Positions 20,463 to 41,590 of a stretch of 64,000 nucleotides of DNA are shown here, in pieces (position 1 is the first letter of the stretch; every line of letters starts with the position of its first letter). The stretch comes from a virus, in the IMG/VR virus record IMGVR_UViG_3300025853_000041, positions 32,001 to 96,000 of that record. The stretch is one strand, 5' to 3'. Both the position numbers and the translations under genes were made by a program. Under the pieces are notes generated by a model. The model searched no databases, was not told the DNA's origin, and was given only the letters and a program-made list of their open reading frames with translations.

Positions 20463-21974
20463 ATGAAAAAGAAAAAAGTTAAGAAATATCAATTGGGAAC
20501 AGGAAAAAATGGTGTTGTAAGACATTATATTGAAAGTCCTGCTGAAACTATGGTAGAAAATGATATCATGATGGCAAAAGCAAAAGCTGAAGCTGCTGAC
20601 AATCAGTGGGCTAAAGGTTTAGACTTGTTTGGGAATATGGCAATCCAATATGGAATGTCTCAAGCAGGAGGCTTAGGTGGTGTTGGACAAGGAATAGGAG
20701 AAGGAATGGGAAATATATTTGGAGGAAACAACACAAAAGGTATGATGGAAATACCAGGAGCAGTGGTTAGTAGAGCAGCTTTTGGAGGAACAGCAGGAGA
20801 AGTGCCAGTGGAAGTTGAAGGAGATGAGGTAGCAGAGTTGCCTGATGGTGGACTAATTGATTTTGAAGGTCCTTCACATGAAGATGGTGGTATAAATACA
20901 AATTTACCAGAAGGAACAGATATTTTTTCTAAGAGGATTAAAGTGAGTGGAAAAACAATGGCTGAGAGAAGATTAGCCAGAATGAAGAAGGAAAAAACTT
21001 TAACAGACCTATTAAAAGGGTCAAATTCTCATGATGTGGTTCTTAATCAAACTCTAAAAAGAACACAAGAAAACAACGCTATGGAACAAGAAAAAGATAA
21101 AAGATTACAACATGTGGTAAAACTATTACATGGAATGACAACTGCTAAAGTCAACCCAGGAACCCCTCAAGAAGCTAGTTTTGGTACATTCTTTAAAGGA
21201 CTTTTTGGTGATTCAGAAACAGGAGAAAAAGGAAGTCTGAATTTCACAGGAGGAGATTTAGTAGGTTTGGCTGGTACATTGTATTCAGCATTTGAACCTA
21301 TGAAAAACACACAAGAACAAAGAGCAGGAGATACTCCTAATATAAATGCTTTTAAAGATTTTGGTGTGGACGCTTTAGATACAATGGAGTCAGCAAAAAG
21401 TTATATAGGAAGTGTACAAGATAATGCTTTACAAGATATTGAATCTAGTAGAACTAAAGCTACTCTACAAAACAGACAATCAGCAAGAGGTGTAAATGTT
21501 ATGAGAGCATTAGACACAGCTACTCAACTTAATGCTGACAAAGCAAAAGGGGATATCTATGATAAGTTTGCCACACAAATGATGAACATGCTTACAAGAC
21601 AAGCAGGTTTAGAGAATGAGCAAGATTTACAAGTAATGACAGGAGAGCAAACTAGAGATGATGCTGATAGACGAGACAGAGATAATTACTACTCTCAATT
21701 AGCTAAAGATATTGCAAGTAAAGGACAAGGCATTCAACAAGCAGGAAAAATGCTTAATCAAAATAAAGCAAATACTGTTTCTGAAAATTTACTTAATCAA
21801 ACTTCAAAAAATTATAGAGTTGATAGTAATGGTAATATCCTTCTTAAAAGTGGAGATAGAGAAATGAGTGTAGAAGAAAGTTTAGCTTATGCACAATCAT
21901 TAGGTTTTAAGACAGTAGAAGCATACCTTGAAAGTCTTTTACCTGGTGCAACAACTGAAAAAACAACTGATTAA
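20463..21974 (+). CDS. Cargo/ejection protein 1
   Basis: VEVEGDE...GPSHEDGG...IFSKR motif, Gly-rich amphipathic segments, coiled coils and no Cys; follows Tstab. Confidence 0.6.
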   Translation: MKKKKVKKYQLGTGKNGVVRHYIESPAETMVENDIMMAKAKAEAADNQWAKGLDLFGNMAIQYGMSQAGGLGGVGQGIGEGMGNIFGGNNTKGMMEIPGAVVSRAAFGGTAGEVPVEVEGDEVAELPDGGLIDFEGPSHEDGGINTNLPEGTDIFSKRIKVSGKTMAERRLARMKKEKTLTDLLKGSNSHDVVLNQTLKRTQENNAMEQEKDKRLQHVVKLLHGMTTAKVNPGTPQEASFGTFFKGLFGDSETGEKGSLNFTGGDLVGLAGTLYSAFEPMKNTQEQRAGDTPNINAFKDFGVDALDTMESAKSYIGSVQDNALQDIESSRTKATLQNRQSARGVNVMRALDTATQLNADKAKGDIYDKFATQMMNMLTRQAGLENEQDLQVMTGEQTRDDADRRDRDNYYSQLAKDIASKGQGIQQAGKMLNQNKANTVSENLLNQTSKNYRVDSNGNILLKSGDREMSVEESLAYAQSLGFKTVEAYLESLLPGATTEKTTD

Positions 21975-23840: not shown

Positions 23841-26800
23841 ATGAACGAAGAAGATATCTTACAACTCAAATTAGCTGGGTACATAGTAGAGAATGGGAAT
23901 ATATTAAGTCCTGAAGGTCAGTTTTTATCTAACGTAGAAGTTAATGGTAAAGCTTACAATTCTCTTGATTCAGAAGAAGATTATAATTATCTTAAAGAAG
24001 CTGAAGAAACTATTTTATCAGATAGAACTGCTGCTGAAGAAGCCAAAAATCAACAAAAAGAAAAGATTACTCAATATGAAGCAAATCCTTTAATTTTTGC
24101 TGACCTTGATGATGTGTCTGATGAGGTGTTTACTGAATATATGGACAAAAAGGCTGAAGATAATGAGCCTGGAGCCTATATGCTTAAAGATGATTTGATT
24201 GCTGAAAAGAAATCAGAAGCTATTCAAGAGGACCTAGTTAATAATTTAGAGACAGGTGAGCCATTAAGTACAAACACAATCTTCACTGAAATTCAAAAAG
24301 ATACTATGTTTCAAGACAAAGGTATTAATTTTGATATTTTAAAAGAAGTATTACCTACTGAGAATAGAATAAAAGAAATTGAAAACGTAGATGAAGATGT
24401 GGACACTATACTAAAAGGTGTCACATCTGAAAAAAAGGATAAAGATAGAAATATTTTTAGCAAGTTAGGAGATTGGATGTGGGATGGCATATATAGTGGT
24501 ATTGCTGCATTGACTCCTGATGGTGTTGGAATGGATGATAAAGACCTTAAAAAAGAGTATGTTGGGTTAAATGAAAAAAGAAAAAATCTTTTAAAACCTG
24601 AGATTGCTAAAATAAGTAATGTCTTAAAAGAAGAATTAGATTTTTACAATAAAGACTATGAAGAAAATTATTCCAATGCTGGTGCTCTATTTGGTAGAGA
24701 AGACCAAGATATTAATAATTATGTTAGACGACAATTACAATCTAAAATAAATTATTTAGACTCTTTTGTTGATGATGCAAATGTTTATAACTTAATCAGT
24801 GAAGAATTTTTAACTGATGTGGGAACACTTGGGTTAAGAGATGCTCATGATGCTGTTAAGTATCGTGCCCATTTAATAGGTAAACTAGAGAATGGAGAAG
24901 AACTAACACCTACTGAACAAAGAGCTGTTGAGAATCTAGGAAGAATAGATTTATTGGGTGGTTTAGATTTAGAACAAAGTACATTATATAATTTAACTTA
25001 TGGTGCAGGACATTCTGTATCTTATTTAGCTGGTGGTGTCTTTGGTAGAATGGCTGGTAAAGTTGTTGGTAAAGGCATTGCCAAAGGTGTTACAGGAGCT
25101 GTTGGGTCTAACTTTGCAAGTAAATTAGCCACTGCAGGTGGTAAGCAAGTTGTAAAAGAGTCTATTGGAAGAACAGTAGGTTTAGTAGGAGATATTGCAA
25201 CTCAAGCTACACTACATACTTCTAATTTAGCAAATACTATTGACAATTATTATGGAACAGTTCATATGGGCTTTGATGAAGATGGTAATAAAGTTCTAGA
25301 AACAGATAGAATGCAATATGAATCTGTTCAAAGAGATATAACTTTATATGAAGATGCATTAAATAGTGGACTTGTTCCTGAAGACCAACTAGAAGCAACA
25401 AAAAGTAATCTAAAATACCTAAAACAAATGTTTAGTGAGATGAAAGAGCCTCAAACAGTTGGAGGTGCTCTGGCTAAATCTTGGACAGGCAACTTTGTTG
25501 AATCTGCTTCAGAGGTGGCAACTCTTAATGTTCTTAAAGGTATTCCTAATAACCTTGTAACTAGAAAACTAACTGAAGGACTTAGAAAAACACCTACTTG
25601 GAAAAATTTAGTTTCAAAGACAAAATCTTTCACAGCAGGACCTACTAATATTCTAAATAAAATAAATAAGCCTTTCCCTAAAACTATGGAAGCTTTGAAC
25701 AGCTTCTCTGGGAATAGATTAGGAAATGTCACTATTGGTGGCAACTTAGAAGAGGCATTAGAAGAAGTTGCAGTACAGGTAGTCCCAGTTTGGGGAGAAA
25801 CTGACAAAGAAGCTGCAGCAAGAAAAGATGAACTACTTCATGGAAGTTTCTATTTCAATGTTTTAGCTCAAGCTCCACTACAAAAAATAATTATGAGCCC
25901 TGTTGGTACTGCCATCAGAGGTAAAAATTATATAAATAGGAAATTAGATGCAGATTACAGACAAACTAAAAAGAATTTCAATGAGTTAATGAAAGACTTA
26001 CAAAAAGGAGGTCTTGAAAAAGAAGAGTTTGATGAAATACTAATGGCTGCAGGAAGTGGAAACTTTAGCCAACTAGAATATAAGAACAAGATTAAGGAGT
26101 TAGATGAAAGAGGTGAAACTGTACAAGCTAATAAGATTCGAGAAAATAGAATCTTTAATGCAGCTTTTATGGCAATGAAACATGGTAAAGGCAAAGAGTT
26201 CATTTCTGCTTTAGAAAAATCTTTAGCTAAGCAACAAGCACCAACTACAATTCCTACACAAAAAGAGGCAGCTACTATTGCTGCAACTATACAGGCTATT
26301 ACTGAAGCAAAAGCTGTTCAAAAAAGTATGAAAAAAGTTGAAGGGCTACCTAATGCTGAATTTATTTTGAACTTAGAATATAATAAAAGAAACTTAGAAA
26401 AGAATAAAGAAGGTATTAGAGCAGAATTGTCTGCTATTGATGCTTCTGAGTTACTAAGTGATGAGCAGAAAGAAGGGCAAAGACTTATGTGGGATGGTCT
26501 TATGGAAGATACAGAAAAAGGTCTTAGGGTTTTAAATAAAAAGATAGAAGGTGAAAAATCACCTACAAAAATAAAAAGATATAAGGATGAGGCTTCTATG
26601 ATGGTGTTTGCAAAACGTCATTTAGAACAACAGAAAAAAGAAGGAGTAGAACAAATGAGCTTAGAGACAGCAATAGAAGAAGCTTATGGTAAGTCTATTT
26701 CTAATTCGAGTAAGAAGAAAGTCCTTAAAACAATGGAAGCAGTAGAAATACTACAAATAGCTCAACAAGAAGCTAAAGAAAAAGCTGCTCCAATAGTAGA

Positions 26801-29800
26801 AGAACCCACAGAAGAGGTTAGCCCTGAGGACAGTCCAGAGACTGTTGAGGGGAATGAAATCACTGATACTGGCATCCCAGAGGCTGCACCTCCTGTGACT
26901 ACAACTCCATTTGGCACTGTCTCAACAGATAGAAACCAAGAAGTTGAAATGTTAGCAGAGGAATTCAAAGAAGCAGTATCAGAAGATATGGAAACTATTG
27001 AAGGTATGATTGAAGATGCACCTGAAGCTCCACCTATGGACATTTTTATGGACATGGATGAAGATGAGATGATTGAATCTTTAGGAGGTAAAAATCAAGG
27101 TAATCCTTTAGTAAGTATAGGTAACAAGATGAAAGATTTTGTTGCAAAGGCTAAGAAAACCACAGGTAGAGATGTAACTTTTGAAGATTTCTTATTAGCT
27201 GTTGCTGGTAGAGGACCAATATCTGATTACAAAAGCTACTTAACCTTATTTGCAAATGCTTGGAGCAATGCAGGTTTAGGTCAAGTAAATGCTCAAGAAA
27301 AGTATATAGCTGCAGTTGAGATGGCAAACCTACTTAATGAAAAAATTGAGATGGCTACCAATGAAGTTCTAGAAATATCTCCAGAGCAAACTAAAAAATT
27401 AGAAACAGAAGAAAAAGCTTTAGGTTTAACAACCACTGAAACAGAGGTAGTTAATCGTGATGCTAATGGAATTCCTGTTGTTACTCAAAAAAGAGATAAT
27501 GTCTTTGACGAGATTTACAAGATTAATAATGCTGCACTTGAGTTTACAGAAGAAGAAGTAACTGACCCTGAAACAGGAGAGGTATATATTCGTAGAACTA
27601 CTGCTCCTATTGCAAAAAGAAATGAAGAAGCAGGCACAAATATTAATAATCTTGTACATCCTGACAAAAATAATAAAGGAGATATTGTCACTGTTCCTAA
27701 ACCTGTCCCAGAAGAGATAGGAAGTATTATGGTTTCAGTGAGAAATGATAAAGGAAGAACAGTTAAAAGAATATCTTTTGCAGAATGGGCTGAAGAGAAT
27801 AGAGGAGACATGAGTATGGAAGAATTCTCTGAAACTGATGAATACATTGCAAAAGTTCCTATGTTTTATGTAGATAGTGAAGGACAAAAAATAGGCTGGG
27901 TAGCAGAGGCTGACTGGTTTAACCCTTCAACTGAAGGAGAAATGTCTGAAGCTGACAGAAACAACATTAAAGTAAGTAACCTTTCTGGAACTGAATTAGC
28001 TGAAATCGAAAGAAAAAAGCAAAGTGCTCTTTCATTAAGAAAAGAAATCTTAGCAGGGAATGTAGAACAATTTGAAATAGTTTCAGATGGTACTTCATTT
28101 GTTAGGTTATACTTCAAACAAGATGAAGAAGGTAACACTATACCTCCAAAACCTTTATCTGAGGTAGCTCCTGATAGTCAGATAGCAATAATGGGAGTTA
28201 ATGGTCTGCATTTTGTAGATGGTCAAACTCAAATTAGTACTGATGATATAATCAATTGGGGAGACAGTGATTCTGGTTTCTCAAGAAAAGTAGAAAAAGT
28301 TTCTGCTGATGGGAAATCTAAAAAGTTTGTTGTAGAGAATGCTAATAAAGCTGTATATCTTCAACATGTAGCTACTGTCAATGGAGTTAAAAAATATGAG
28401 ATTAGTCTCACTCAAAGACAAAATGATGAAAATGGTGCAGGTGTACCTAAATCAGTAATTGAGACTGTAAGAATTTTGGCTGCTGCTAATACTATTTTAA
28501 TGAATGATACCTTTAGTGTTAAAAAACCTGGTAACATTCCTTTCATTGCTAAGGATAATCCTTATAGAATGACAAAAGAGCAAGCTCAACAGATTCATGA
28601 TAAAGTTAAAAAAGAAACAGGACTTTCTTTATCTACATCTCTAAATGAGTTGATAGAAGGACTTGTTAACATTAAAGATGCTAAGGGAGGAAAAGTGAGT
28701 AGTGGTCTTACAATAGCTAGTCTATCTAACAGGTGGGACAAAGATAATGGTCATGCTGTTAAAGATTCACAGTTTGTTGAGAATACTAAATTTGGTAGAG
28801 ACACACATTTAGGTAAAATTGTATCTATTGCTAAAACAGATAATGGACAATTTGAAGTAAATGTTATTGCAGAAAGTTATATTGACTACTTAAAGGACAC
28901 ACATAAGACTAATATGATGGGTTACAATGTAGGCACAAGTGATAATCCTGTATATACTCCTGCTATTCAACAAGCAGTTAGAATCAAGCCAATCAGAAAA
29001 GTAAAACCAGTTAATGAAATTGTAGAAGAAAACACTACTGCTCCTACTGTTATACAAAAAACAGAGAAGATTGTAGAAGAAGTTAACAATATGGATGAAA
29101 TTGCTGAGGTTTTGGATATTGAAGTGGAAACCAAAACTGAAGAGCAAAAAGTTGCAAGAGAGGCTGCTTTAAATAAAGCCATTGCTACTATTGAAGCTCT
29201 TGGAGGTCAGGTAAACACTGTTGAAGAAAGTGATGAACTTATTGTTTCTGAAATGACTTCAGCACAAAATGTTACTGATTCAATATTAATTACTGAAGGA
29301 TTAACAGTAGAACAAGAAGAAGACCTTATTGGTAGTCTTGCTGCTGAACTGGCAGATAAAAACGCTGATTATAAGCAGATAATGATGAACCTAAATAGTG
29401 ATTTAGCTCATGCAAATACTGCTATTACTAATTCTAAAAATGATTTAATTGATTTTAAAGGTAATCCTACTGTGGATGCTGTGTTAAATTCTTTAAATAC
29501 TTTGAGCACACAAATTCAAAAAGTAAGAGAGAATAGAGATAGGCTGTTAGCTGAAGCTTCTGATAGAGGCAGAAGAGACAGTTTTGTTGTTGATGTTTAT
29601 GAGGAGACAGAAGGAATGTCTGAAAAAGATTATGGTAAAAAAAGTAATGAAGCATTACCAGTAGATAAACTGGGGACTGCTTTGAAAAGAATATTTGCTA
29701 AAGTAGAAACAGGGCAAAAAGGATTCTTAGGTAGAAATAAAATTGCACCATTTAAAAGTATGTATGATACTGTTTTATTAACACTATCTGAATCTATTGG

Positions 29801-32800
29801 AGCAACAACAGACTTTAAAGATATGATGAATATCTTAAGAGAATACTCTGATAGTAACTATTGGATGAAATCTTTAATTGAAAAATTAGAGGCTTCTGAT
29901 GAACAAATACAAAATGCTTTTGTTTATAACATGCATGCTCAAAAAGTTACAGCTTATTTTTCAGGTTTTACTCAAAACAATAATACTTTGAATGCTACAT
30001 TTTATGAGAGTAATTCAAATTCTGCAGTGAGAGCCATTAAAAGAAACTGGCAAGATAACTTTAATAGAACTGCATTAAATGATATGGGTCAATTGAACTT
30101 GGAAGAGGTTAATAGGCTATACAATGAATACTTAAGTTGGGGTAAAAGTCCTGAGAAACAAGATTCTGACACTTTAAGATATTGGTTAGACAACTTTGGT
30201 ATTCGTTTATCAGAGAAGACCATGGAACAGCTTATGTTAGGAGAACTAAGGATTGTAAAAGATGGTGTAGCAGTTAAGCAACCATTTAAGGCTTTATTTG
30301 AGCATTCTGCAGGTGTATTCAATATTTTGAATGAATACCTTATAAAAAACAAAGATGCAAAAGGAGACTTAGGTTTCAGCACAAACACAAAATTAAATCC
30401 TTTCAGTGATATGCACTCTTTATTAGAGCAATTAGCATATCTGGAAGCTAAAAATAATAATAAATATGCCAGTACTACAAGAAGGTCAGGTGGTAAAACT
30501 TTATCTGAAGTAGAGAATATGACATATTTTTACCAACAAATAAGAAAACTTAAAAACTCAGTATTGAGTAAAAACAGTTATGTTGATAAATTAAGAAAAA
30601 CAAGCTTTGCTCAAGATTCTTATATGTTGAGAATGCTTAAAGAAGACCCTGAATTTGTTGAAGCTTTTGACCATGGTTTGATGGACCTTATGGCATTGAA
30701 AGATATCTATAAAGATTCTCCAATGTTTGCAAGTATAGAAGAATTAAGTGAAGAAGATTATCAATTAGCTTTAAGAATTGCATTCCAAGCTAAAGGTAGA
30801 GATGCAAAAATGGACAAGAAAACTGGTTTTAAAATCAGATTATCAAACATGAATACTCTAACCAATTCTGATAAAGGTAGAATGGTAATGTTGAAAACTT
30901 TTGTCTATGATTTTTTCAGAAGTGAACAAGCTTTTGATAAAGACGAAAAGGGGAACTTCGTATTTTCTGATAATTTGAATGAATTGATGTGGAATGATTA
31001 TGTGATGCCTGAATTAAGAAGAATGCACACTTTCATTAATTCAAATCAAGTGACTGATATCAAAGGATATTCAGAGGGAGCTGTTAGATTTAATGTGTTC
31101 CCTGTCCTTAATACTATTACAAACAAAAAAGGGCAAACTATAAAAGAAGCTATTGAAGCTGGAGCCAGTTTAGAACAAATTAAAGAACAGTTTAAAACTG
31201 ATGCCACTAAAGAAGTAGAGAAAAATACTTTTGCAGAAGCTGAAAAAGTTTCAACTAAAAGAAAAACTAATAATGATGCAGAATATTTGGCAGGAAGAAA
31301 AGTTGGAACTCCTGAAGAAAAAAACTTTTTAGCTGAAGTTGATTTTATTTTGAATTCTAAACTGAGTTCAATGAATTATATGCAAATGGTTGCAGGAGAC
31401 CCAGCATTATACTATAAATCAAAAGCTGACAGTACCTCCAAAAATTTAAAAGAGGCTACTAAAGCTTCTATGCAAAGTGCTATTAACCTTGGTAAAAGGA
31501 TGGCAGCAATGATTGCACCAGGAAAGAATTTAGCCAACTCAAAAGGAAACAAGTATATTCAATTATTTATGGATGACATATATGGGTCAGCTTCTAATTT
31601 AGAAGACATTATAGGTTGGCACTATCCTGTTGAAGAGATTGATGAGATGAATCCTGAAACAAAGATGTCTTACAGAGCAATGATTAAAGTTTCTGTATCA
31701 GGAGACACTAAATATGACAAGATATTGAAAGCACAGTTTGATACTGTTTCAGATTTTATTGGAATTGAATCTACTGATGCTCAAGAATACTCAAGTGTTA
31801 AAGAACATCTTTATATCCTTGAAAAGCAAGGACGTTTACCTCAAGAGACAATTAATGAAATTCGTGAAAAGATTGATATGCAGCATAAATTTTACCACAC
31901 TAAATCTAATGTGGGTAAACCTATTCCTGCTGAGTTGTCTTTGAGCACTATAATTAACAGCAAAAATAAAGCAATTGATGGTAAAACACAATTAGAGATT
32001 TTATTACAACCTATTAAGCCTGTTTATACAGGTAGTATGTTAGAAGGAGATGTGAATAGAATAGTCTATATAAAAACCTCATCTTTCCCTTTAATACCTG
32101 AACTGACTGCTGGAACTAAGTTAGATAAACTTAGAGTACAAATGGAAAGAATAGAGCTTGAAACAGGAAAAACAGTGAGAGCTGTACACCATTCAGGAGC
32201 TAAAGTAGGTGGTTTTACTGCTGATAAAACTATAACTAACTTTGATGATGTAATTACAGCAGAAAATCATATGGTCTTAGATAGAGAACATTTTAAAATT
32301 CAGCAGGATGTTCCAAGTAAAGCTGGAAAACCTCAAGATGATTATGTATCTATGGGTACTCAAATCTTTAAACTTTTATTTGGAGATGGTATTGATACTA
32401 TGGAAGGGTTTGAATTTGATGGAGAACCTATTACAGGACAGGAACTTAAAGAGAAATTTTTCCAAACATTCTCAGGAATGGTAAATATGAAAAGAGGAGA
32501 TTTATTAGAATCTTTAGGTTTGGACAAAAATATGGTTCCTAAAAATCTTGCAAAATCAAAAGAATTATTACAGAAACTACTTATTGCTGAAGCTAAGAGT
32601 AGAGGTTTTGCCAAGCAGGACCTTAAAGCTTTAGAGTTAGTAGGAAAAAATAAAAACTTTAGATTGCCACTATGGGCTTCAGGAAACAGTAATAAGTTTG
32701 AAGCAATGTTAAATGCATTAATCAATAATAAAATCTTCAGACAAAAGATTCCAGGTAACAAGTTTGTTACTGCTTCTGAAGGAAACATGGAGCTCCAAGA

Positions 32801-35800
32801 GGGGATTGAAGGATACCAACATATGAGTAAAGTAATTCGTATTGGAAACTATAAAGGAGGAGAGCTACAAAGTACAACCACAAAAGATGGTAAACTACTT
32901 AAAGCTCAAGTACTTATGCCTTCAAGAATAAAATTAGGAGGAAGATTAGTTGATATCTTTGACGACTTTATAGAAGAAACTGGAGAGGGTACTTACATTA
33001 AGTTAGTAGATGGAGCATATCAATTGAAGACTGAAATGATGGATGAAAAACTATTAGAACAGTTTGTATTTAGAATCCCTACTTCTTCTCATGGTTTAGG
33101 CTCAGCAGTTGAAATTGCAGGATTCCTTCCACCAGAGTCAGGAGATTTAGTTATAACTCCTAAAAGTTTTGTTGCTCAAATGGGTCAAGATTTTGATATT
33201 GATGCTTTAACAGCATATCAATATAATCATGTAGTGAGAGAAGATGGAAGAATTGAAAAATTAACTCAAGAGAACAAAGATGTATATTTAGAAGAAAAGA
33301 AAAGACAAATTGCTGATTTAGAACAATCTATCAGACAAAATGGTAAATATGGTCCTGAGACTGCAATATTATTTAATGATATTTTAGCTTCATTATTAGG
33401 AGAAGAAGAAAGTTTAGCTTTCAATATGTATCCTGAAACTGAAGAGGAATTACAAGAAGCTATCAAAAAGCTTAAATCTGAGATTCCTAAAAACATGGAT
33501 AAGAAACTATTAGAAAATGACTTTATTCAAATTCATATTTCTGTATTCTCTAATCCAGCAGCTCAACAAAAAATAAACAAAGCTTTATCTATGGCATTTG
33601 CTGAAGGACAGGCTGAAGATATTGAAGAACTTATTCAAAGTCTTGAGGAAGAGGGTACGACATTTGACATGTTGTCTCCTGAATATCAAAGAGTTAAAAT
33701 GGATAATGGTTCAACAGGGCAGGTTGCTATTGGTATTTACGCCAAAGCAATTACCTTACACAGTAATATGCAACAAGCTTTAGTAAAAGGTGGTGTGCAT
33801 CTTACACGAAAAGTATTTAAGAATGGTAAGCTAAAGAAAACAAGAGCTGGGATTGCAATTGGTAATCTCTACTCTTCTGGAAACTTTGGTACAGATATGA
33901 CAATATCAAATTCTAAGAATAAAACTATTTTAGGTTTAAGAAGAGCTATCTCAACAGTGTTAGATGAAAGAGCAAATACTGCAACAGATAATGAAAAAGC
34001 ACAAATTTTGGGTAAAACTGGTTTGAACCATAAGAGTGCAATTGCTGTTGATAGTATGTTGGCTATGTTAGGTTTTGATGCTGAGCACCAAATTATAGGG
34101 AAAGCATCAGGTTATACTGCGACAGAAAAACCTTCAGAATTTAATGAGGATAATCCATTTCATAGAAGCAAAAAGATTGCAGGTGGTAAAACAATTTACT
34201 ATAAAGAATATTCTATACCTTATCTTCTACACTCTCAACCTATTGTGAAGGAATTCTTTGCTTTACTTGGAGAGAAAGAGTCGATTAGTGCTGAAGAATT
34301 CTCTATGAATCCAAAAGGAGAGGTTATACAAGAACTAATTCTTAAGTATGGTGGACCAGAATATACCATAGTAAATGGAGAGTATGGTATAATGATACCT
34401 GCACAAGATGGCACAGATAGAATGTACTTTGAATCTTCACAAAGAAATGAAGAGTTTACAGGACAGAGATTAGCTGACAATATAAAATTAGGAGATAAGG
34501 CAGACACTATACAACAATTAGAGATTCTTGCTTTATATACTCAATTAATGACAGATGCTGATGGGATTAAAGAAGCTAACAAACATGTTGACCTGGATAA
34601 CTTAGGAAAATCAATGTGGGAGTCTTCTACAAAAGAAGAGGAATTTAGAGAATATTTTACAAACCTAGAGGCTAATTCTAATCTTGAAGGTATTGAAAAT
34701 CTTGTAGGAGAATTCTATGAGAGATTTGAAGTTGAACAGATGGAAGAGGCTGACCAAGAGGGATTATTATATTTAGGAGATAATATCTTCTTAAAACCTA
34801 CTACTAATCAGGGAGTTATGATTGGCTCAGCTTTATCTTTAAGTGCAAATATCTTTAATGGGTTATTCCCTGCCAAGAGTGTGTACTTAAATAAAGTGGT
34901 TAATAAAATTCTTGCAAATAGCAGAATAAACCCCAATAATTCTTTTGCTGTTATTAAGGCAAAAGAGAAGATTTTTCAAGAGGTTAAAAAATATTTGACA
35001 AGTGCTGAAATACTTGGATTATTCAATACAAATGCTAAAGAAGTCAGAGAAAATCTTTTCATTGACGTTCCTGGATACAACACATCCTTAAGCAGTTACA
35101 CTGATTATGTCTTAGCAGCAGGCTTGAAGAAAAATGAGAGTTCAGAGTATAAAGCTGGTTTAGATAAAGTGAGAGGAAACTTATTCCTTAACCTATTAAA
35201 TTTCCAATATGGAGAAAATGGTAAACCATCTTTAATAACTTTCAACAATCAAGAATCTTTTGAAGCTAACCAAGAGGCTATCTATACAGCATTTAAAGAA
35301 CTTATTGCTGAAGATATATCTCTTCCAAGAATTATGAGAAATGGTAAATCAGAGTATTACTCAACAAGACTCTTGGCTCAAGAGCTTATAGCCTATTCTT
35401 ATTCTTCTGGAGGTGTTATTCAAGGAGCAGTAGAATTTCATAAATTCTTGCCAATTGAATATTTAGATGATATGGTCACTAAAACTGCTCAAGGAAAAGA
35501 AATGACACCTTCAACAGTTCTTAGAAGATTCCACACACTATTCAACAATGATGATAATAATGTGGTATTCTTAGAAGAGTTTGAGCAACAGTTTTACCAG
35601 AACAATCCAGGGATGGCAGCTCAACATAAGTTGAAAAGAAGTCCTATCAAAGAAGGTGGAGAGTTTTACACTCTTAAATTTTCTACTGAAGGACCATTAC
35701 CAACATATATTTCTGAAAGAGCACCAAATGTAGGAGGCAAAAACAGAAGTAAGCTTAAACAACATCAGTGGAAACTGTATAAATTAGATAGTGCATCTAA

Positions 35801-36920
35801 AGTGTACTATCCAATTACCACTTTAGGAACTTTTGGTATGGCTGAATATGAATATCAAAATCAAAACTTAACTTCAAGTATGCTTGAAAAAGAGTTTGTC
35901 AATAATAAAGCTTCAGGAATAGAGGTTCAAATGAGAGAAGATGATATTTTAGGGGAACTTCCTGGGGAGGGCACACCTTTAGTTGATGCAGTTGGTATGA
36001 TTGCCAATGGCGAGTTTGGAGATAGTCAAAGACTAATCCAAATAGCTAAGTTTATTGGACCATTATTGAAAACTCAAGACACTCTTAAGTATAATCAAGG
36101 GAATGTATTTGCTAAAGGTAGTACAGGAAAGAAAACTGGGCAGGTTTCACTTAACACTGATAAAATTAGTTCAAGAGAAGATTATGCAATTACACTATTG
36201 CATGAGTCTCTTCATAATTTGACTTCTAGGTTTATGACAGAATTCCTTAATGAAGATGGCACTGTTAAGAAAAATGCTCCAAGTGAAATGTACACTTTTA
36301 TGAATGTTTATAATCAGTATAAAACAGAGTTAAGAAAACTTGACCCTGATAAGTATGACCAATTCATGAAAGAATTTACTGCTTACAAGGAAAAAAGAAA
36401 GAATAATGAATCTGTGAGACCTGATGGGTTTACTTTAAAAGGTGATGAATTTGAAGCTTATTATGCTATGGTAAATCCAAAAGAATTCTTAGCAGTAACC
36501 TTATCAAATGAGAATGACCACTTTAAAAAGTTAGCAAATCAAATGGATTATTATTCAAAAGTAAAAGGATTTAGAAACAAATTAGTAGATATTATTACAA
36601 GAATCGTTAATATAATCGCTAAAAGAGAGAATTTACGAGAAAATTCAGTAGCTTTGCAGGCGATACAAGAAAGCCTGATGGTAGTTAAAGCTGGTTCAAA
36701 GTTTAATTACCAAGCTCAGAAAAGTATAACTCCAGACTTTATGCCTCCTGATATTAGAGATGACATCGGAATGCCTGCTGGAAGATTAGCAGAAATAGAG
36801 GCAATGATGTTACAGGATTCTCAATTACAAGAATTACCTGAAGGTTTCATGCCTGAAGGTGCTTCAGCAGGAGCTTCTTTCTTAAGTGTTACAGAAGACA
36901 TAAATAACAAATGTAAATAA
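23841..36920 (+). CDS. Giant virion-packaged RNA polymerase polyprotein (two-barrel RNAP with N-terminal extension and C-terminal zincin domain)
   Basis: 4359 aa. Catalytic GQDFDID at 33183-33203 is preceded by FRIPT; also TDAQ, QPIKPVY, IKTSSFPLIP, SGAKVG and ATDNEK. C-terminal HESLH (36201-36215) plus downstream KEF forms a zincin motif. Confidence 0.9.
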   Translation: MNEEDILQLKLAGYIVENGNILSPEGQFLSNVEVNGKAYNSLDSEEDYNYLKEAEETILSDRTAAEEAKNQQKEKITQYEANPLIFADLDDVSDEVFTEYMDKKAEDNEPGAYMLKDDLIAEKKSEAIQEDLVNNLETGEPLSTNTIFTEIQKDTMFQDKGINFDILKEVLPTENRIKEIENVDEDVDTILKGVTSEKKDKDRNIFSKLGDWMWDGIYSGIAALTPDGVGMDDKDLKKEYVGLNEKRKNLLKPEIAKISNVLKEELDFYNKDYEENYSNAGALFGREDQDINNYVRRQLQSKINYLDSFVDDANVYNLISEEFLTDVGTLGLRDAHDAVKYRAHLIGKLENGEELTPTEQRAVENLGRIDLLGGLDLEQSTLYNLTYGAGHSVSYLAGGVFGRMAGKVVGKGIAKGVTGAVGSNFASKLATAGGKQVVKESIGRTVGLVGDIATQATLHTSNLANTIDNYYGTVHMGFDEDGNKVLETDRMQYESVQRDITLYEDALNSGLVPEDQLEATKSNLKYLKQMFSEMKEPQTVGGALAKSWTGNFVESASEVATLNVLKGIPNNLVTRKLTEGLRKTPTWKNLVSKTKSFTAGPTNILNKINKPFPKTMEALNSFSGNRLGNVTIGGNLEEALEEVAVQVVPVWGETDKEAAARKDELLHGSFYFNVLAQAPLQKIIMSPVGTAIRGKNYINRKLDADYRQTKKNFNELMKDLQKGGLEKEEFDEILMAAGSGNFSQLEYKNKIKELDERGETVQANKIRENRIFNAAFMAMKHGKGKEFISALEKSLAKQQAPTTIPTQKEAATIAATIQAITEAKAVQKSMKKVEGLPNAEFILNLEYNKRNLEKNKEGIRAELSAIDASELLSDEQKEGQRLMWDGLMEDTEKGLRVLNKKIEGEKSPTKIKRYKDEASMMVFAKRHLEQQKKEGVEQMSLETAIEEAYGKSISNSSKKKVLKTMEAVEILQIAQQEAKEKAAPIVEEPTEEVSPEDSPETVEGNEITDTGIPEAAPPVTTTPFGTVSTDRNQEVEMLAEEFKEAVSEDMETIEGMIEDAPEAPPMDIFMDMDEDEMIESLGGKNQGNPLVSIGNKMKDFVAKAKKTTGRDVTFEDFLLAVAGRGPISDYKSYLTLFANAWSNAGLGQVNAQEKYIAAVEMANLLNEKIEMATNEVLEISPEQTKKLETEEKALGLTTTETEVVNRDANGIPVVTQKRDNVFDEIYKINNAALEFTEEEVTDPETGEVYIRRTTAPIAKRNEEAGTNINNLVHPDKNNKGDIVTVPKPVPEEIGSIMVSVRNDKGRTVKRISFAEWAEENRGDMSMEEFSETDEYIAKVPMFYVDSEGQKIGWVAEADWFNPSTEGEMSEADRNNIKVSNLSGTELAEIERKKQSALSLRKEILAGNVEQFEIVSDGTSFVRLYFKQDEEGNTIPPKPLSEVAPDSQIAIMGVNGLHFVDGQTQISTDDIINWGDSDSGFSRKVEKVSADGKSKKFVVENANKAVYLQHVATVNGVKKYEISLTQRQNDENGAGVPKSVIETVRILAAANTILMNDTFSVKKPGNIPFIAKDNPYRMTKEQAQQIHDKVKKETGLSLSTSLNELIEGLVNIKDAKGGKVSSGLTIASLSNRWDKDNGHAVKDSQFVENTKFGRDTHLGKIVSIAKTDNGQFEVNVIAESYIDYLKDTHKTNMMGYNVGTSDNPVYTPAIQQAVRIKPIRKVKPVNEIVEENTTAPTVIQKTEKIVEEVNNMDEIAEVLDIEVETKTEEQKVAREAALNKAIATIEALGGQVNTVEESDELIVSEMTSAQNVTDSILITEGLTVEQEEDLIGSLAAELADKNADYKQIMMNLNSDLAHANTAITNSKNDLIDFKGNPTVDAVLNSLNTLSTQIQKVRENRDRLLAEASDRGRRDSFVVDVYEETEGMSEKDYGKKSNEALPVDKLGTALKRIFAKVETGQKGFLGRNKIAPFKSMYDTVLLTLSESIGATTDFKDMMNILREYSDSNYWMKSLIEKLEASDEQIQNAFVYNMHAQKVTAYFSGFTQNNNTLNATFYESNSNSAVRAIKRNWQDNFNRTALNDMGQLNLEEVNRLYNEYLSWGKSPEKQDSDTLRYWLDNFGIRLSEKTMEQLMLGELRIVKDGVAVKQPFKALFEHSAGVFNILNEYLIKNKDAKGDLGFSTNTKLNPFSDMHSLLEQLAYLEAKNNNKYASTTRRSGGKTLSEVENMTYFYQQIRKLKNSVLSKNSYVDKLRKTSFAQDSYMLRMLKEDPEFVEAFDHGLMDLMALKDIYKDSPMFASIEELSEEDYQLALRIAFQAKGRDAKMDKKTGFKIRLSNMNTLTNSDKGRMVMLKTFVYDFFRSEQAFDKDEKGNFVFSDNLNELMWNDYVMPELRRMHTFINSNQVTDIKGYSEGAVRFNVFPVLNTITNKKGQTIKEAIEAGASLEQIKEQFKTDATKEVEKNTFAEAEKVSTKRKTNNDAEYLAGRKVGTPEEKNFLAEVDFILNSKLSSMNYMQMVAGDPALYYKSKADSTSKNLKEATKASMQSAINLGKRMAAMIAPGKNLANSKGNKYIQLFMDDIYGSASNLEDIIGWHYPVEEIDEMNPETKMSYRAMIKVSVSGDTKYDKILKAQFDTVSDFIGIESTDAQEYSSVKEHLYILEKQGRLPQETINEIREKIDMQHKFYHTKSNVGKPIPAELSLSTIINSKNKAIDGKTQLEILLQPIKPVYTGSMLEGDVNRIVYIKTSSFPLIPELTAGTKLDKLRVQMERIELETGKTVRAVHHSGAKVGGFTADKTITNFDDVITAENHMVLDREHFKIQQDVPSKAGKPQDDYVSMGTQIFKLLFGDGIDTMEGFEFDGEPITGQELKEKFFQTFSGMVNMKRGDLLESLGLDKNMVPKNLAKSKELLQKLLIAEAKSRGFAKQDLKALELVGKNKNFRLPLWASGNSNKFEAMLNALINNKIFRQKIPGNKFVTASEGNMELQEGIEGYQHMSKVIRIGNYKGGELQSTTTKDGKLLKAQVLMPSRIKLGGRLVDIFDDFIEETGEGTYIKLVDGAYQLKTEMMDEKLLEQFVFRIPTSSHGLGSAVEIAGFLPPESGDLVITPKSFVAQMGQDFDIDALTAYQYNHVVREDGRIEKLTQENKDVYLEEKKRQIADLEQSIRQNGKYGPETAILFNDILASLLGEEESLAFNMYPETEEELQEAIKKLKSEIPKNMDKKLLENDFIQIHISVFSNPAAQQKINKALSMAFAEGQAEDIEELIQSLEEEGTTFDMLSPEYQRVKMDNGSTGQVAIGIYAKAITLHSNMQQALVKGGVHLTRKVFKNGKLKKTRAGIAIGNLYSSGNFGTDMTISNSKNKTILGLRRAISTVLDERANTATDNEKAQILGKTGLNHKSAIAVDSMLAMLGFDAEHQIIGKASGYTATEKPSEFNEDNPFHRSKKIAGGKTIYYKEYSIPYLLHSQPIVKEFFALLGEKESISAEEFSMNPKGEVIQELILKYGGPEYTIVNGEYGIMIPAQDGTDRMYFESSQRNEEFTGQRLADNIKLGDKADTIQQLEILALYTQLMTDADGIKEANKHVDLDNLGKSMWESSTKEEEFREYFTNLEANSNLEGIENLVGEFYERFEVEQMEEADQEGLLYLGDNIFLKPTTNQGVMIGSALSLSANIFNGLFPAKSVYLNKVVNKILANSRINPNNSFAVIKAKEKIFQEVKKYLTSAEILGLFNTNAKEVRENLFIDVPGYNTSLSSYTDYVLAAGLKKNESSEYKAGLDKVRGNLFLNLLNFQYGENGKPSLITFNNQESFEANQEAIYTAFKELIAEDISLPRIMRNGKSEYYSTRLLAQELIAYSYSSGGVIQGAVEFHKFLPIEYLDDMVTKTAQGKEMTPSTVLRRFHTLFNNDDNNVVFLEEFEQQFYQNNPGMAAQHKLKRSPIKEGGEFYTLKFSTEGPLPTYISERAPNVGGKNRSKLKQHQWKLYKLDSASKVYYPITTLGTFGMAEYEYQNQNLTSSMLEKEFVNNKASGIEVQMREDDILGELPGEGTPLVDAVGMIANGEFGDSQRLIQIAKFIGPLLKTQDTLKYNQGNVFAKGSTGKKTGQVSLNTDKISSREDYAITLLHESLHNLTSRFMTEFLNEDGTVKKNAPSEMYTFMNVYNQYKTELRKLDPDKYDQFMKEFTAYKEKRKNNESVRPDGFTLKGDEFEAYYAMVNPKEFLAVTLSNENDHFKKLANQMDYYSKVKGFRNKLVDIITRIVNIIAKRENLRENSVALQAIQESLMVVKAGSKFNYQAQKSITPDFMPPDIRDDIGMPAGRLAEIEAMMLQDSQLQELPEGFMPEGASAGASFLSVTEDINNKCK

Positions 36921-36925
36921 TAATT

Positions 36926-39900
36926 ATGGCAGGAATATGTAAAACTACCTTAAATGAGGTAAAGCAAAACTATGAAGAGAGAGTTGGTAAATATATCAAT
37001 ACTCTATATGGAAAAAGTTTTGAAGAAATAACTGACCCAATGAATCCATTACATAAAGTGAATGGAATCAAGTTTTTAAATGTTAAAAAAGACAACATAA
37101 GTCCAACAACCTTCTCTATTGAAATTAATAGAGAGGGTTTAAACAAACTTATAATTAAAGAGACCTTCAGAATTGTTAATGAGGATGTTGATGAAACTTT
37201 TGACCCAACTCTTCCACCTGATGATTTTGAACTTCCTGAAGGAATGATGCCTGAAGGTGTCCCTAATATGCCTGGAGTTTTGCCTCCTGGTATGGTTCCT
37301 ACTGCTAAGCCTGATTATCCTTACAGATTTGAAGAGACTTTAGCTCATAGAAGACAGTTAAAAGACAGTATTGACAGAAAGATTCAATTGCTTCAAAATG
37401 AAGAGCTTGCAGAAGAGACTTCTAAACAACAATTGGAACAGATAGCTTATCTAAAAGATATTTCTGTAAAATTATTTAAAGAAATTCAATTCTTAGAAAA
37501 AAATGAAGGAGATGTAGATGCTTTTGTAGATAATATAGCCACAGATATTAAAAATACTATGGGGCTATTGAAAAACCCTACAATTGAAAACTTAGAGTTT
37601 GCAAGAAAATATCTTCAAATGTTAGACTATTTTGTTAGAGATGATGAGACTGGATTCTTAAAGTCTTCTTATTCGACACTTAAAGATACTAATCCTGATA
37701 TACACAATAAAATAGTACAGGCAAGACAAGGGATAACTGAGGCTAAAGATGATTTAGCAGCTAAAGTAAACCTTCAAGTAGAAGAAAAAATTAAATACCA
37801 TATAAGACAAAAGGAAGAATATCAAAATGCTGATGAAGCTTTCTTAGAGAGTGAAGCTAAAAGATTATTCAAAGAGCAATTTGCTGAGCAACAAGAAATT
37901 TGGTATGGATTAAAGTTTTACACTAAAATGGAAGATATGGAAGAAGAAGGTAATGTTCTTGTTTCTGTAATTAAGAAAGCTTATGATGATGCTGTTAGAA
38001 ACAATGGTAAAAAAGGTGTAGAAGACAAGTTGCTGGCAAAAGAAAAAAGTATAGTAAACAGACTGATTGAGACAGGAAATTATGTAGGTAGCTTCTTCAA
38101 GAAGAAAGCCCTATGGGATGTCTTTAAAACAGATAATGAAGGGGAAAACAGATTGATTAATCCTTTTACTGTTTCTTGGCAAAAATTTAAAAAAGCTAAT
38201 GAAGTTAAACAAAGAGTTATTTCTAAAATATTTTATAACTTTTCAGCAGAATCTTCTGATACTCAATTAGCTGCAATAGATAAGCACTATGAAACTTTAA
38301 AGAAAGAGGCTGACTTTATAGATATAAGAAAACTGCCTGAGATAATTGCTAACAAAGATTTTGATGAATTTAAAGGCTCTTTTTCAACTGATGCAGAAGC
38401 TCTTGCTTACAGAGATGAAATAATTGCAAGGATTGGAAGAAGAGAATACAATAAACTTATAAAAGAAGCAGAAGACAATATTAATTCTTTTATGATTGAA
38501 AAAGAAGTTAAATTTAATCAATTAAAAGATGAATATGGTGTTACAAATGGACAGGAATTACAGAATGCAATGTATAGAGCAGGAGCTGAAAGTGTCTGGA
38601 ATTTCTATTTACAGAATTATTACACTAAATCTCCTTTTATCTTTGCAGAAAACCACTTTGACCAAGCAACTGGCAACAAGATTGCTAAAGTCTATTTTGT
38701 TGAAAACAAACAATACCTTAATTATGATGCAAGAGCTAACTTAGAGTATAGTACTTTTATACCTAAGACTAAATATCATGATAGCAAATTTGAAGAAAAG
38801 ATTAAAGGAGACAAAGTTCTGCTAGAAGCTTGGGAGTTAATGGACGAACTTGTAGAATACAGTAATAAAAATGGGGCTGATTATAATGCTGATACTGACT
38901 TAGATACAGATTTAGGACATGAAAGAAAAAGAACCCACTTATTAACTGATGTTCTTGGTCTCCTTTCTCCAACAGCTTTAACGAACCTTAAAAAAATAAT
39001 GAGGAGACTTACATCAACTATATCTGGTGAAGGTTGGGTTGATGAGACTGCTGAAGACAAAAGAATAGCAGGACAAAGGGTCACTACTGAGAAGAAAATT
39101 ATGCAACAATTTAATAAATTGATTGCTATTGATGGTCTCAAGCAAGTAAACATGACTGAAGCTCAAATTGAAGAGTATAGAGAAAGAGCTTTAAATTTAG
39201 TTAATAAGCATGCTGATACTGAAAACCTATTACACAATATTATCACTTCCTCTCAAATGACAGGTTCTTTTAAAGCTAAAAAAGAAGTAGAAACATATCT
39301 ACAATTTATAGCAAATCAATTAAGAGGAGCAAAAGGCAGAAAAGCTTTTACAGAAATAGTTGACTTTTTTATTAATAGAAATTTATATGCAATTAATAAT
39401 AGGGGTAAAACTGCTAAAGGCAAGTTTAGAAATGAGTTTGGAAGAAGGGTAAAACATTATCCACATGAACACGAAGAAATCAGAAAAGAAATCAAAGAGG
39501 GTTTGAAAGTTCTAAAAAAGAGAGCTAAAAAAGAACCTAATAATAAAGAACTTGCATTACAGATTGCTGATTTAGAAAAGATGTATGAAGATGGAGTTGT
39601 ATATGTAAATGGTAGAGATGTCACTGAAGCAATGTTATTTAAGGTAAAAGCTTTTACTGCTTTTGCTATAAATGGTTCAGCTCAGGTTACAAACATGGCT
39701 ATTGCAAGTGCTAATGCTTATGAAGTAGATGGCAGACCAGGATTTTGGAAAGCTGGCATATACACTAGAAGTATGTCTTTTGCAAGAAAATATAAGAATA
39801 TAAAATTAATTACCTCTAAGAAAATGCGAGAACAAAGAAAGATTATGGACCTCTTTCTAAAAAGTGCAGACTTAGTGCAGAATAGTGCAAATGAAATATA

Positions 39901-41590
39901 CAGGGAGCAATCATCCAGATTTGGTTCTGCTGTTAAAGAAGTTATTAAAAATCCAACTAATTTTGTTGGAGAGGTAGAGAAAACAATTCAAAAACCTCAA
40001 CTATTAGCTTTACTTACAGAGGTTTTTGTTGAAGACAAAAATGGACAAAAAGTACCAGTTTTTGATGTAAAAAAAGGAGAGTTTCCTGCATTTACATTAA
40101 AAGATGGTGTGCTTGTTTTAAAGAAAGATTTTGATACAAAGAAAAATAGAGATACTTTTATAAGTTTTAACTCTCAAGAGGCAGCAAATATTTTTGGGGA
40201 GTCTGGAAAAATACCTAAAGCTATTGCTTATATAAATGGTGATTATCGTAATTCTACTACTTATTTAGCTGAAAAATATATAGTGACTGCAATGACCTTA
40301 ATGTTTAAAAGATGGGCAATTGCAACAATCTACAAGAAGGCTGATATTTACAAAAGATTAGCTAAAAATGACCAACATATTGCAGGGAATGGGTTTCAAC
40401 TATTAAAAGCTGGTATCTTTGCCACAGCAGTAGGCTCAGCAGGACTTTTAGGTGGTGTATTCACTATGCCTGTTGTTATGGGAATAGGAATTGGTTGGTA
40501 TGCTATATCACAAAGAAAAGCTTTTCTTAAGCAAATTCAAGAAGACCAAACTAAGTTAGAACAAATCTATAAAAATACTAAAGAAGTGCAACTAGCAGTT
40601 TCTATGGAAAAATATGTTAAGGGTAGTTTAACTATTGCAACTTTAGCTTTATCTACTGCAGCTCAAGCATTACTTAATATACCTAGTAGGTGGATAGGAA
40701 GAGATGTCATAGATAGTGACAAACTTAAAAGTATGGTTTACATTGATAAGAAAAATCTACAACAAAAAGCAGTAGATGAGATACAAGCAGATTTATACTT
40801 TTTGCAGACATCAACAGCTTTAGTCTTAAGAAATATGATTTATGGTGTGATGTTACATTCACTTTATTCTTTACTTGACCCAGGATTTGATGACGATGAA
40901 GAAAAAGAAGCATATAAAAAAGCAGTTGAAGCTGAAAAAGGTATTTATTTTGCAGGAGAAGATGAAAGAACTAAAATTCAGACAGTTATGGAATATCCTG
41001 GACTTTCAACCTATTATGCTTTAAACAACATGTTGGCTTCTTTTGCTGAAGATATGTCCCTTACTGAAAATTGGACAGGGCTTCAAAGAATGGGTCAAGC
41101 AGGTAGTATTGAAGATGCTTGGAATGTTGGAGAAGAGCTTGTAAAGGATGAAGAATACGAAAGAGGTAAAAATGCAGGACGTAAAAAAGGAGTTGTACTT
41201 GCTGAAAGATATGTTACTCCTTCTGCTGTAAACTTATTTGGATTTGGTAACAAAATGGAAAAAGACTACAATACAGAGGGTATAGTGGACAGGTCAAACA
41301 AAACTAATCTTGAGATAATGACTGATATCCATAAAGAAGCTAAGAAGGTAGCTAAGAAAAACCACGAAGAAGTGGTTAAAACTTGGGCAGAATATGAAAG
41401 TTTACCAGAAGGAGAAAGAGCAGATTGGGTGAAAAAAGAACTCACCAAATTTTCAAGAAATGAATATCCATCATTAAAACCAGAAGATTTTAATAAGGAT
41501 GGTTCATTAACTGCTGAAGGTATGGATAAAGTAAGAAATTATAGAGCTGGTATCCCTGAAGATTTATTGAAAGAGCTTAAACTTGAGTAG
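36926..41590 (+). CDS. Large cargo/ejection protein with predicted membrane segments
   Basis: 1554 aa, helical, with INGDY...MFKRW and the hydrophobic stretch AGIFATAVGSAGLLGGVFTMPVVMGIGIGWYAI; last gene of the virion operon. Confidence 0.65.
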   Translation: MAGICKTTLNEVKQNYEERVGKYINTLYGKSFEEITDPMNPLHKVNGIKFLNVKKDNISPTTFSIEINREGLNKLIIKETFRIVNEDVDETFDPTLPPDDFELPEGMMPEGVPNMPGVLPPGMVPTAKPDYPYRFEETLAHRRQLKDSIDRKIQLLQNEELAEETSKQQLEQIAYLKDISVKLFKEIQFLEKNEGDVDAFVDNIATDIKNTMGLLKNPTIENLEFARKYLQMLDYFVRDDETGFLKSSYSTLKDTNPDIHNKIVQARQGITEAKDDLAAKVNLQVEEKIKYHIRQKEEYQNADEAFLESEAKRLFKEQFAEQQEIWYGLKFYTKMEDMEEEGNVLVSVIKKAYDDAVRNNGKKGVEDKLLAKEKSIVNRLIETGNYVGSFFKKKALWDVFKTDNEGENRLINPFTVSWQKFKKANEVKQRVISKIFYNFSAESSDTQLAAIDKHYETLKKEADFIDIRKLPEIIANKDFDEFKGSFSTDAEALAYRDEIIARIGRREYNKLIKEAEDNINSFMIEKEVKFNQLKDEYGVTNGQELQNAMYRAGAESVWNFYLQNYYTKSPFIFAENHFDQATGNKIAKVYFVENKQYLNYDARANLEYSTFIPKTKYHDSKFEEKIKGDKVLLEAWELMDELVEYSNKNGADYNADTDLDTDLGHERKRTHLLTDVLGLLSPTALTNLKKIMRRLTSTISGEGWVDETAEDKRIAGQRVTTEKKIMQQFNKLIAIDGLKQVNMTEAQIEEYRERALNLVNKHADTENLLHNIITSSQMTGSFKAKKEVETYLQFIANQLRGAKGRKAFTEIVDFFINRNLYAINNRGKTAKGKFRNEFGRRVKHYPHEHEEIRKEIKEGLKVLKKRAKKEPNNKELALQIADLEKMYEDGVVYVNGRDVTEAMLFKVKAFTAFAINGSAQVTNMAIASANAYEVDGRPGFWKAGIYTRSMSFARKYKNIKLITSKKMREQRKIMDLFLKSADLVQNSANEIYREQSSRFGSAVKEVIKNPTNFVGEVEKTIQKPQLLALLTEVFVEDKNGQKVPVFDVKKGEFPAFTLKDGVLVLKKDFDTKKNRDTFISFNSQEAANIFGESGKIPKAIAYINGDYRNSTTYLAEKYIVTAMTLMFKRWAIATIYKKADIYKRLAKNDQHIAGNGFQLLKAGIFATAVGSAGLLGGVFTMPVVMGIGIGWYAISQRKAFLKQIQEDQTKLEQIYKNTKEVQLAVSMEKYVKGSLTIATLALSTAAQALLNIPSRWIGRDVIDSDKLKSMVYIDKKNLQQKAVDEIQADLYFLQTSTALVLRNMIYGVMLHSLYSLLDPGFDDDEEKEAYKKAVEAEKGIYFAGEDERTKIQTVMEYPGLSTYYALNNMLASFAEDMSLTENWTGLQRMGQAGSIEDAWNVGEELVKDEEYERGKNAGRKKGVVLAERYVTPSAVNLFGFGNKMEKDYNTEGIVDRSNKTNLEIMTDIHKEAKKVAKKNHEEVVKTWAEYESLPEGERADWVKKELTKFSRNEYPSLKPEDFNKDGSLTAEGMDKVRNYRAGIPEDLLKELKLE

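Follow-up and report, generated by a model that had tools for sequence, protein, structure and literature searches.

Paired terminal cysteines at the breaks of the cargo polyproteins of crAss-like phages: a candidate interchain disulfide

Genes of the cargo block

The DNA studied here (the window) is a viral stretch of 64,000 nucleotides (nt), positions 32,001 to 96,000 of IMG/VR record IMGVR_UViG_3300025853_000041, and it carries the four consecutive plus-strand genes that form the cargo block of a crAss-like phage. The third gene encodes a giant RNA polymerase polyprotein and the fourth the protein following it, and each product has a single cysteine, located at the ends by which the two face each other; the conservation and the possible meaning of this pair are the subject of this work. 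The block begins with a protein of 503 amino acids (aa; 20463..21974), matching phrog_15413 and homologous to gp30 of phage FpV4, and continues with one of 618 aa (21977..23833), matching phrog_14670 and homologous to FpV4 gp31; both lack cysteine. The third open reading frame (ORF; 23841..36920) encodes a polyprotein of 4359 aa that carries an RNA polymerase of the virion type and, towards its C-terminus, a zincin domain, and its sole cysteine is the penultimate residue. The block is closed by a protein of 1554 aa (36926..41590) that begins MAGICK and whose sole cysteine is residue 5. The coordinates, the codons, the 5-nt gap, the four ORF lengths and the absence of any further cysteine had been given in a previous sequence-only reading of the window, and all of them were confirmed on the sequence.

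The giant ORF is a crAss-type two-barrel polymerase, homologous to that of phage phi14:2 (gp66) and carrying the DFDxD motif. Its comparison with the g066 RNA polymerase of phi14:2 by blastp gave an E value of 1e-23, and its catalytic motif, DFDID, was located at residues 3117-3121 (33189..33203), with D3117, F3118, D3119 and D3121 invariant in alignment A2. The zincin motif of the block, HESLH, lies at residues 4121-4125 (36201..36215), 237 residues upstream of the terminal cysteine; H4121 is invariant in alignment A3, and the columns of the C-terminal domain invariant in A2 are G4093, E4122, H4125, Y4208, E4215, F4216 and C4358. The match of this zincin with the zincin region of phi14:2 g065 is weak (hhalign E 6.5e-4). 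Among cultured relatives, phages FpV4 and Fpv1-3 of Flavobacterium psychrophilum are the closest, with 32% identity over 97% of a query made of the last 2059 residues of the giant protein, and their gene order matches that of the window.

For the 1554-aa protein no PHROG match was obtained, nor any Pfam match in its first 300 residues. Upstream of the block, an ORF of 1946 aa matched a virion structural PHROG, and little was gained by PHROG annotation of the neighbouring ORFs of the window. A blastn search of the window junction against a phage collection gave no match. Scanning IMG/VR with a single protein did not reveal any relative, and the scan with an alignment recovered one, locus L001. 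By analogy with their homologues, the giant proteins of the window are most likely packed in the virion and injected: the block proteins of phi14:2 are annotated as virion proteins from tandem mass spectrometry, and the cargo proteins of crAss001 were detected in virions by mass spectrometry (PMC10172136).

Cysteine content of the block

The codon of Cys4358 is TGT (36912..36914), and it is followed by AAA (Lys) and the TAA stop; the 5-nt spacer TAATT (36921..36925) gives a second in-frame TAA. The codon of Cys5 in the downstream protein is also TGT (36938..36940). These are the only two cysteine codons in the 7038 codons (7034 aa) of the four cargo ORFs, that is, 0.028%. From the position-specific base composition 73 would be expected, and 65 from the cysteine content (0.92%) of the other 35 ORFs of the window (Poisson P about 1e-25). 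TGY is common in these genes when they are read in either non-coding frame, with 95 and 410 occurrences. Besides, the chance that two random cysteines in 7034 residues both fall at most 5 residues from this junction is about 2e-6. The cargo of the window thus has cysteine far under the rest of its proteome, as is characteristic of cysteine-suppressed ejection proteins.

Other ORFs of the virion module (12180-12950, 13683-14594 and 14594-20434) are, unlike the cargo block, rich in this residue, with 8, 9 and 18 cysteines, respectively. They are candidates for inter-subunit structural disulfides like those of the crAss001 tail.

Conservation of the two cysteines in homologues

The terminal cysteine of the polyprotein was searched for in 32 giant-protein homologues (3903-4845 aa, 24-66% identity over the C-terminal 600 aa). 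It is present as the last, second-last or third-last residue in 31 of them, 29 of which have no other cysteine; the lone homologue without it is short and probably truncated. The C4358 column is invariant also in A3. The residues around the terminal cysteine differ among homologues (KCK, TCK, KCN, LCQ, KCE, ICD, DCL, NCY, ECN and others) and, since the flanks vary while the cysteine stays, it is the amino acid that is constrained, rather than a string of DNA. On the other side of the junction, the sole cysteine is at residue 3-5 in all nine homologues of the 1554-aa protein that are complete (24-67% identity). A tenth (P0011), which is short, keeps the N-terminal cysteine and has extra ones in an aberrant C-terminal tail. 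In the closest homologues we infer that both cysteines go together, L001 being one basis for it.

A profile scan of metagenome contigs provided 79 loci, the environments sampled being marine, freshwater and others. After dereplication, 42 of the 44 junctions between polyprotein and next protein had a cysteine on both sides, the upstream one at most 7 residues from the C-terminus (mostly at position -2) and the downstream one at residue 3-6, mostly as M-x-C. The two junctions without the pair are artefacts, a miscalled start in L010 and an N-masked end in L039. Altogether, the 128 dereplicated chain proteins (343,969 aa) have 128 terminal and 72 internal cysteines (0.021%), and the cysteine content of neighbouring ORFs is 0.29%.

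The CK dipeptide noticed at both cysteines by the sequence-only reading is exact in the window but it is not conserved, as the flanks vary and the residue after the cysteine is identical on both sides in 12 of 51 junctions. The codon is TGT in 98 of 102 cases, which fits the AT-rich codon usage. In the window (36909-36942) and in L001 (9985-10020) both cysteine codons form part of an ATGTAAA string, and two TAA codons in frame close the upstream gene. This string is shared within the close clade only, most likely as a side effect of AT-rich Lys codons; like the CK dipeptide, it is a local trait of that clade and not a conserved feature.

The pair follows the breaks of the chain

In other phages the giant protein is split, and the pieces of these polyproteins were placed on the profile of the giant protein. 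Genuine internal splits were found elsewhere on the profile, in two places or more (about 1705 and about 2866-2961). The split at about 1705 occurs in L032-L035; that at about 2866 occurs in eight loci, always with a gene of 157-163 aa between the pieces; and at about 2953 the pieces of L029 are separated by 5.9 kb of other genes. All ten genuine internal splits have a C-terminal cysteine upstream and an N-terminal cysteine downstream. Middle pieces are tipped with cysteine at both ends: the 2921-aa piece of L032, for instance, has cysteines at N+3 and C-3 only (N+n and C-n being the nth residue from the N- and from the C-terminus). Six other apparent splits, with overlapping frames or frameshifts, do not have the pair, as would be expected of assembly errors.

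When the chain is not broken, the cysteines are missing. In L029 the downstream piece and the next protein form one chain of 2901 aa, with no cysteine at the fusion point. Similarly, g065 of phi14:2 is an apparent zincin and downstream protein in one chain with a cysteine at N+3 only, the fusion being based on two collinear hhalign matches of modest evidence (each E about 6e-4). Finally, the giant ORF of the window crosses the break sites of the other phages without any cysteine. The window itself is of the two-piece type, with its break after the zincin. Two expectations of the sequence-only reading are borne out here: terminal-only cysteines at the two ends facing each other were seen in all relatives examined, and they disappear on gene fusion in L029, in phi14:2 g065 and in the giant ORF.

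With regard to the gene inserted between cysteine-tipped pieces at profile position 2866, it was observed in L065, L068, L069 (13546-14022), L070, L072 (5439-5915), L075, L077 and L078. In the two copies scanned, those of L069 and L072, the ferritin-like domain PF00210 was recognised (E 1e-12 to 1e-13), and this insert may have to do with iron or redox chemistry at the junction. A possible split at profile position about 945 was also observed in L036, where the order is an ORF of 1198 aa (cysteine at C-2), an insertion of three ORFs (12 cysteines in one of them, of 849 aa), an ORF of 235 aa (cysteine at C-3) and the polymerase piece (N+6).

Cultured and reference crassviruses

The same arrangement was found in annotated genomes. 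In phi14:2, the sole cysteine of g067 (1797 aa) is its last residue, the g066 RNA polymerase (2180 aa) has cysteines at N+3 and C-2 only, and g065 (1421 aa) follows with the N+3 cysteine mentioned above. In FpV4 the cysteines are at C-2 of gp32 and N+3 of gp33. The three chain proteins of the crAss001-like phage PhiCrAssBcn2 have theirs at C-3 (first), N+5 and C-9 (second) and N+5 (third), and those of DAC15 at C-3, N+5 and C-1, and N+4, respectively. In these two phages the first chain gene is convergent, on the opposite strand to the other two (L085:9521-28711; L084:13742-31388), and the matching terminal cysteines are kept in all three proteins.

Two further genomes have the upstream cysteine at C-2, crAss002 in gp32 and p-crAssphage ZA in QAU03812, with the downstream cysteine in an internal MSC of the annotated protein (residues 33-35 of crAss002 gp33 and residues 22-24 of p-crAssphage QAU03811). 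Because this internal MSC fits the conserved M-x-C head of downstream pieces, it is probably the true start in both genes (L083:13157-25894 and L086:11631-23906), the annotated starts being apparently too far upstream. The M-x-C motif improves annotation, as it marks where the downstream piece begins. Two side observations were made in these genomes. In crAss002 a gap of 170 nt with an apparent inverted repeat, spotted by eye, precedes gp33, and p-crAssphage ZA carries two putative thioredoxin genes (L086:26078-26371 and 27088-27357) on the opposite strand, a few kb from the cargo block.

Interpretation of the cysteine pair

Considering the observed rule of paired terminal cysteines, its conservation, its link to polypeptide breaks and the one disulfide of the same signature solved in an unrelated podophage, we propose that Cys4358 of the polymerase/zincin polyprotein (donor) and Cys5 of the next protein (partner) are probably joined by an interchain disulfide once the virion has been assembled and released. 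The podophage is cyanopodophage A4 (Anabaena phage A-4L), in which electron cryomicroscopy revealed a disulfide between Cys1715 of gp27 and Cys5 of gp26 among the pre-ejectosome proteins (PNAS 2025, PMC12002296). A disulfide is favoured because it is the simplest chemistry for two lone thiols and because the bond is of this kind in the only solved case with the signature. That structural proteins of crAss001 are linked by intermolecular disulfides was also counted in its favour (PMC10172136). An interchain link had already been suggested by the sequence-only reading, which is supported in part; the link agrees with both comparative results, conservation at facing ends and loss on fusion, and with the A4 precedent, and what had to be abandoned is the CK-CK detail and the claim of novelty. 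The consequences drawn in that reading, a single thread, a set order of ejection and a release by reduction or by the zincin, are suppositions.

The bond, if it forms in this phage as we suppose, would turn both products into one near-linear chain with stubs of 1 and 4 residues, and the linked pair would mimic the single fused polyprotein encoded by other crAss-like phages. The pair occurs only at chain breaks and a few residues from the ends, which suggests that the continuity of the chain is what matters. A covalent link is proposed because no other contact would survive unfolding in the passage through the tail: the disulfide would keep the pieces joined as they unfold and are driven through it, and host cytoplasmic reductants would then separate them. 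Exclusion of all other cysteines from the block would keep the proteins from pairing wrongly and from being trapped in the periplasm, which is oxidising.

Several points weigh against this proposal. The proteins are made in the reducing cytoplasm, and gut hosts live without oxygen. In addition, smaller proteins of the upstream part of the block carry a lone terminal cysteine with no evident facing partner, namely FpV4 gp30 (N+5; L081:7854-9650), crAss002 gp30 (C-8; L083:2462-4135) and p-crAssphage QAU03814 (C-2; L086:737-3124); homology to the 503-aa protein of the window was shown for FpV4 gp30 only, the other two being named by position. At L036 (1339-9218) two C-terminal cysteines are found for one N-terminal cysteine. 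In the crAss001 atlas no disulfide is listed for the RNA polymerase proteins of the cargo, and their cysteines go unmentioned (PMC10172136), and the preprint on the phi14:2 polymerase, which was purified in dithiothreitol, contains neither the word cysteine nor disulfide (10.1101/2020.03.07.982082). Finally, A4 gp26 and gp27 have no detectable homology to the crAss proteins (against the window proteins, hhalign probability 0.2% and hmmsearch --max E 0.09 or worse). Homology of the A4 and crAss pairs was consequently rejected and the A4 precedent is an analogy only.

Other explanations of the pair were considered. First of all, a metal ion could bridge both thiols without any S-S bond, perhaps with the terminal carboxylate or amine or with nearby side chains. 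This would explain the same co-occurrence at every break, and a zinc-binding HExxH domain adjoins the junction of the window. However, there is one cysteine per end, with no conserved His, Asp or Cys beside it and with widely varying flanks, such a bridge would not survive unfolding, and the sole solved case, A4, is a disulfide. We consequently regard a metal bridge as unlikely.

Secondly, the thiols could be engaged in other chemistry, such as a link to a third virion protein (portal or tail), a thioester or thioether, or an enzymatic ligation to a peptide bond. The unpaired terminal cysteines on other block proteins suggest that other partners are possible, and the tail proteins of crAss001 use many disulfides (PMC10172136). 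Against this, the number of C-terminal cysteines equals that of N-terminal ones along the chain in almost every phage, a Pfam search of the terminal 300 residues revealed neither an intein nor a ligase or thioester domain, and positions such as C-2 and N+3 are unfit for split inteins, so the chance that this chemistry operates is small. A split intein was rejected specifically, as its nucleophiles would be due some 100 aa before the C-terminus and some 35 aa after the N-terminus, and here the cysteines are 1-3 residues from the ends, with no others and no intein domain. A lipoprotein-type N-terminal cysteine was rejected as well, the MAGICK and M-x-C heads being read directly with no signal peptide before the cysteine.

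A third explanation is a cysteine switch, in which the C-terminal cysteine would sit on the catalytic zinc of the zincin 237 residues upstream and hold the protease inactive inside the particle, in the manner of the pro-domains of matrix metalloproteinases, the cysteine of the next protein having a separate role. The zincin active-site residues and C4358 are indeed among the invariant A2 columns of the C-terminal domain, and the zincin proteins of crAss002, p-crAssphage and the crAss001-like phages end in a cysteine about 185-215 residues past HExxH. Nevertheless, the same pairs are present at zincin-free breaks (phi14:2 g067/g066, the profile-1705 and profile-2866 splits and PhiCrAssBcn2 gene 81/80), and neither the facing N-terminal cysteine nor the loss of both on fusion is explained. 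As a general explanation the switch was rejected, given that the pairs occur far from any HExxH, and we find it very improbable at the window junction too.

The last explanation, a nucleotide or translational signal with no protein function (ribosome hopping between the TGT codons, translational coupling or a chance ATGTAAA repeat), is scarcely credible: both TGT codons of the window are in ATGTAAA with the genes 5 nt apart, and TGT predominates among the cysteine codons, although AT-rich codon usage accounts for that, but the pairs persist on opposite strands or across 0.5-5.9 kb of other genes, by which hopping and coupling are ruled out, and the flanks and the following residue seldom agree. 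A translational bypass of the T4 gene 60 type was likewise discarded, since it would need matched nearby codons on one mRNA.

Returning to the disulfide, a wider proposal can be made, which is tentative and to which we give somewhat less than an even chance. Every break of the cargo polyprotein in crAss-like phages may be mended post-translationally by a terminal disulfide, in such a way that one unfolded thread of 5000-9000 residues would leave the capsid and be parted only by the reducing host cytoplasm, as a redox-gated delivery chain. If true, this would explain the free tolerance of splits, fusions and insertions in the block. Among the viruses of the human gut the crassviruses are the most abundant, and a mechanism is wanted by which they could pack and inject RNA polymerase and partner proteins of more than 600 kDa. 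In the crAss001 atlas the cargo proteins were not resolved, and their ejection order was considered to be set probably by packing and mutual interactions (PMC10172136). A covalent end-to-end tether, if it exists, would provide a concrete mechanism for stoichiometry, co-packaging and ordered ejection, and would also explain the evolutionary cutting of the block at many places without loss of function.

Comparison with known systems

Among the closest systems are the cargo blocks described in other Crassvirales, gp67-gp66-gp65 of phi14:2 (Drobysheva et al., preprint 10.1101/2020.03.07.982082) and gp45, gp46, gp47, gp49 and gp50 of crAss001, in which the RNA polymerase chain is gp47, gp50 and gp49 (PMC10172136). 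Both share with the window the homologous polymerase, the zincin, the terminal-cysteine rule and the place downstream of a large virion structural gene (PHROG 15100). The window differs from phi14:2 in that a single protein of 4359 aa comprises the gp67-like part together with polymerase and zincin, the break coming after the zincin, whereas in phi14:2 the breaks are before the polymerase and before the zincin. In crAss001, for which reduced and non-reduced samples were analysed by mass spectrometry, the intermolecular disulfides reported are in structural proteins of the portal vertex and the tail (PMC10172136).

The A4 pair resembles that of the window in that the genes of the two ejection proteins are adjacent, with the sole cysteine of one near the upstream C-terminus and that of the other at N+5. 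In the A4 genome (NC_024358) gp27 (1717 aa) has it at C-3 and gp26 (1114 aa) at N+5. The window presents the same signature, at C-2 and N+5, in its case known from the sequence. A4 differs in that no RNA polymerase is involved and that there is a single pair instead of a chain with several links, and no rule tied to gene splits and fusions is described for it (PMC12002296). In our literature searches, in which subscription papers were thinly covered, no description of the terminal-cysteine rule was found for Crassvirales. In N4-like phages the polymerase is of a different, T7-like type. Our own count gave no cysteine in the 4294 aa of N4 gp50-52, and one in T7 gp14-16. As in the window, the giant virion RNA polymerase and its companions in the Schitoviridae N4 (gp50-gp52) and DEV (gp71-gp73) are nearly free of cysteine, a suppression already published and explained by the passage through the periplasm (PMC11445570); unlike the window, they have no terminal pairs. 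The sequence-only reading had known of no earlier description of such a chain, and in this it was mistaken, both the A4 disulfide (PMC12002296) and the N4-like cysteine suppression (PMC11445570) having been published.

A more distant parallel may be drawn with clostridial neurotoxins and diphtheria toxin, which consist of two chains joined by an interchain disulfide that is reportedly reduced in the target cytosol (PMC6899712). The likeness would lie in a zinc protease-bearing chain and its partner, one disulfide, the unfolded passage through a narrow channel and the release in the cytosol; the proteins are unrelated and the delivery machine is another.

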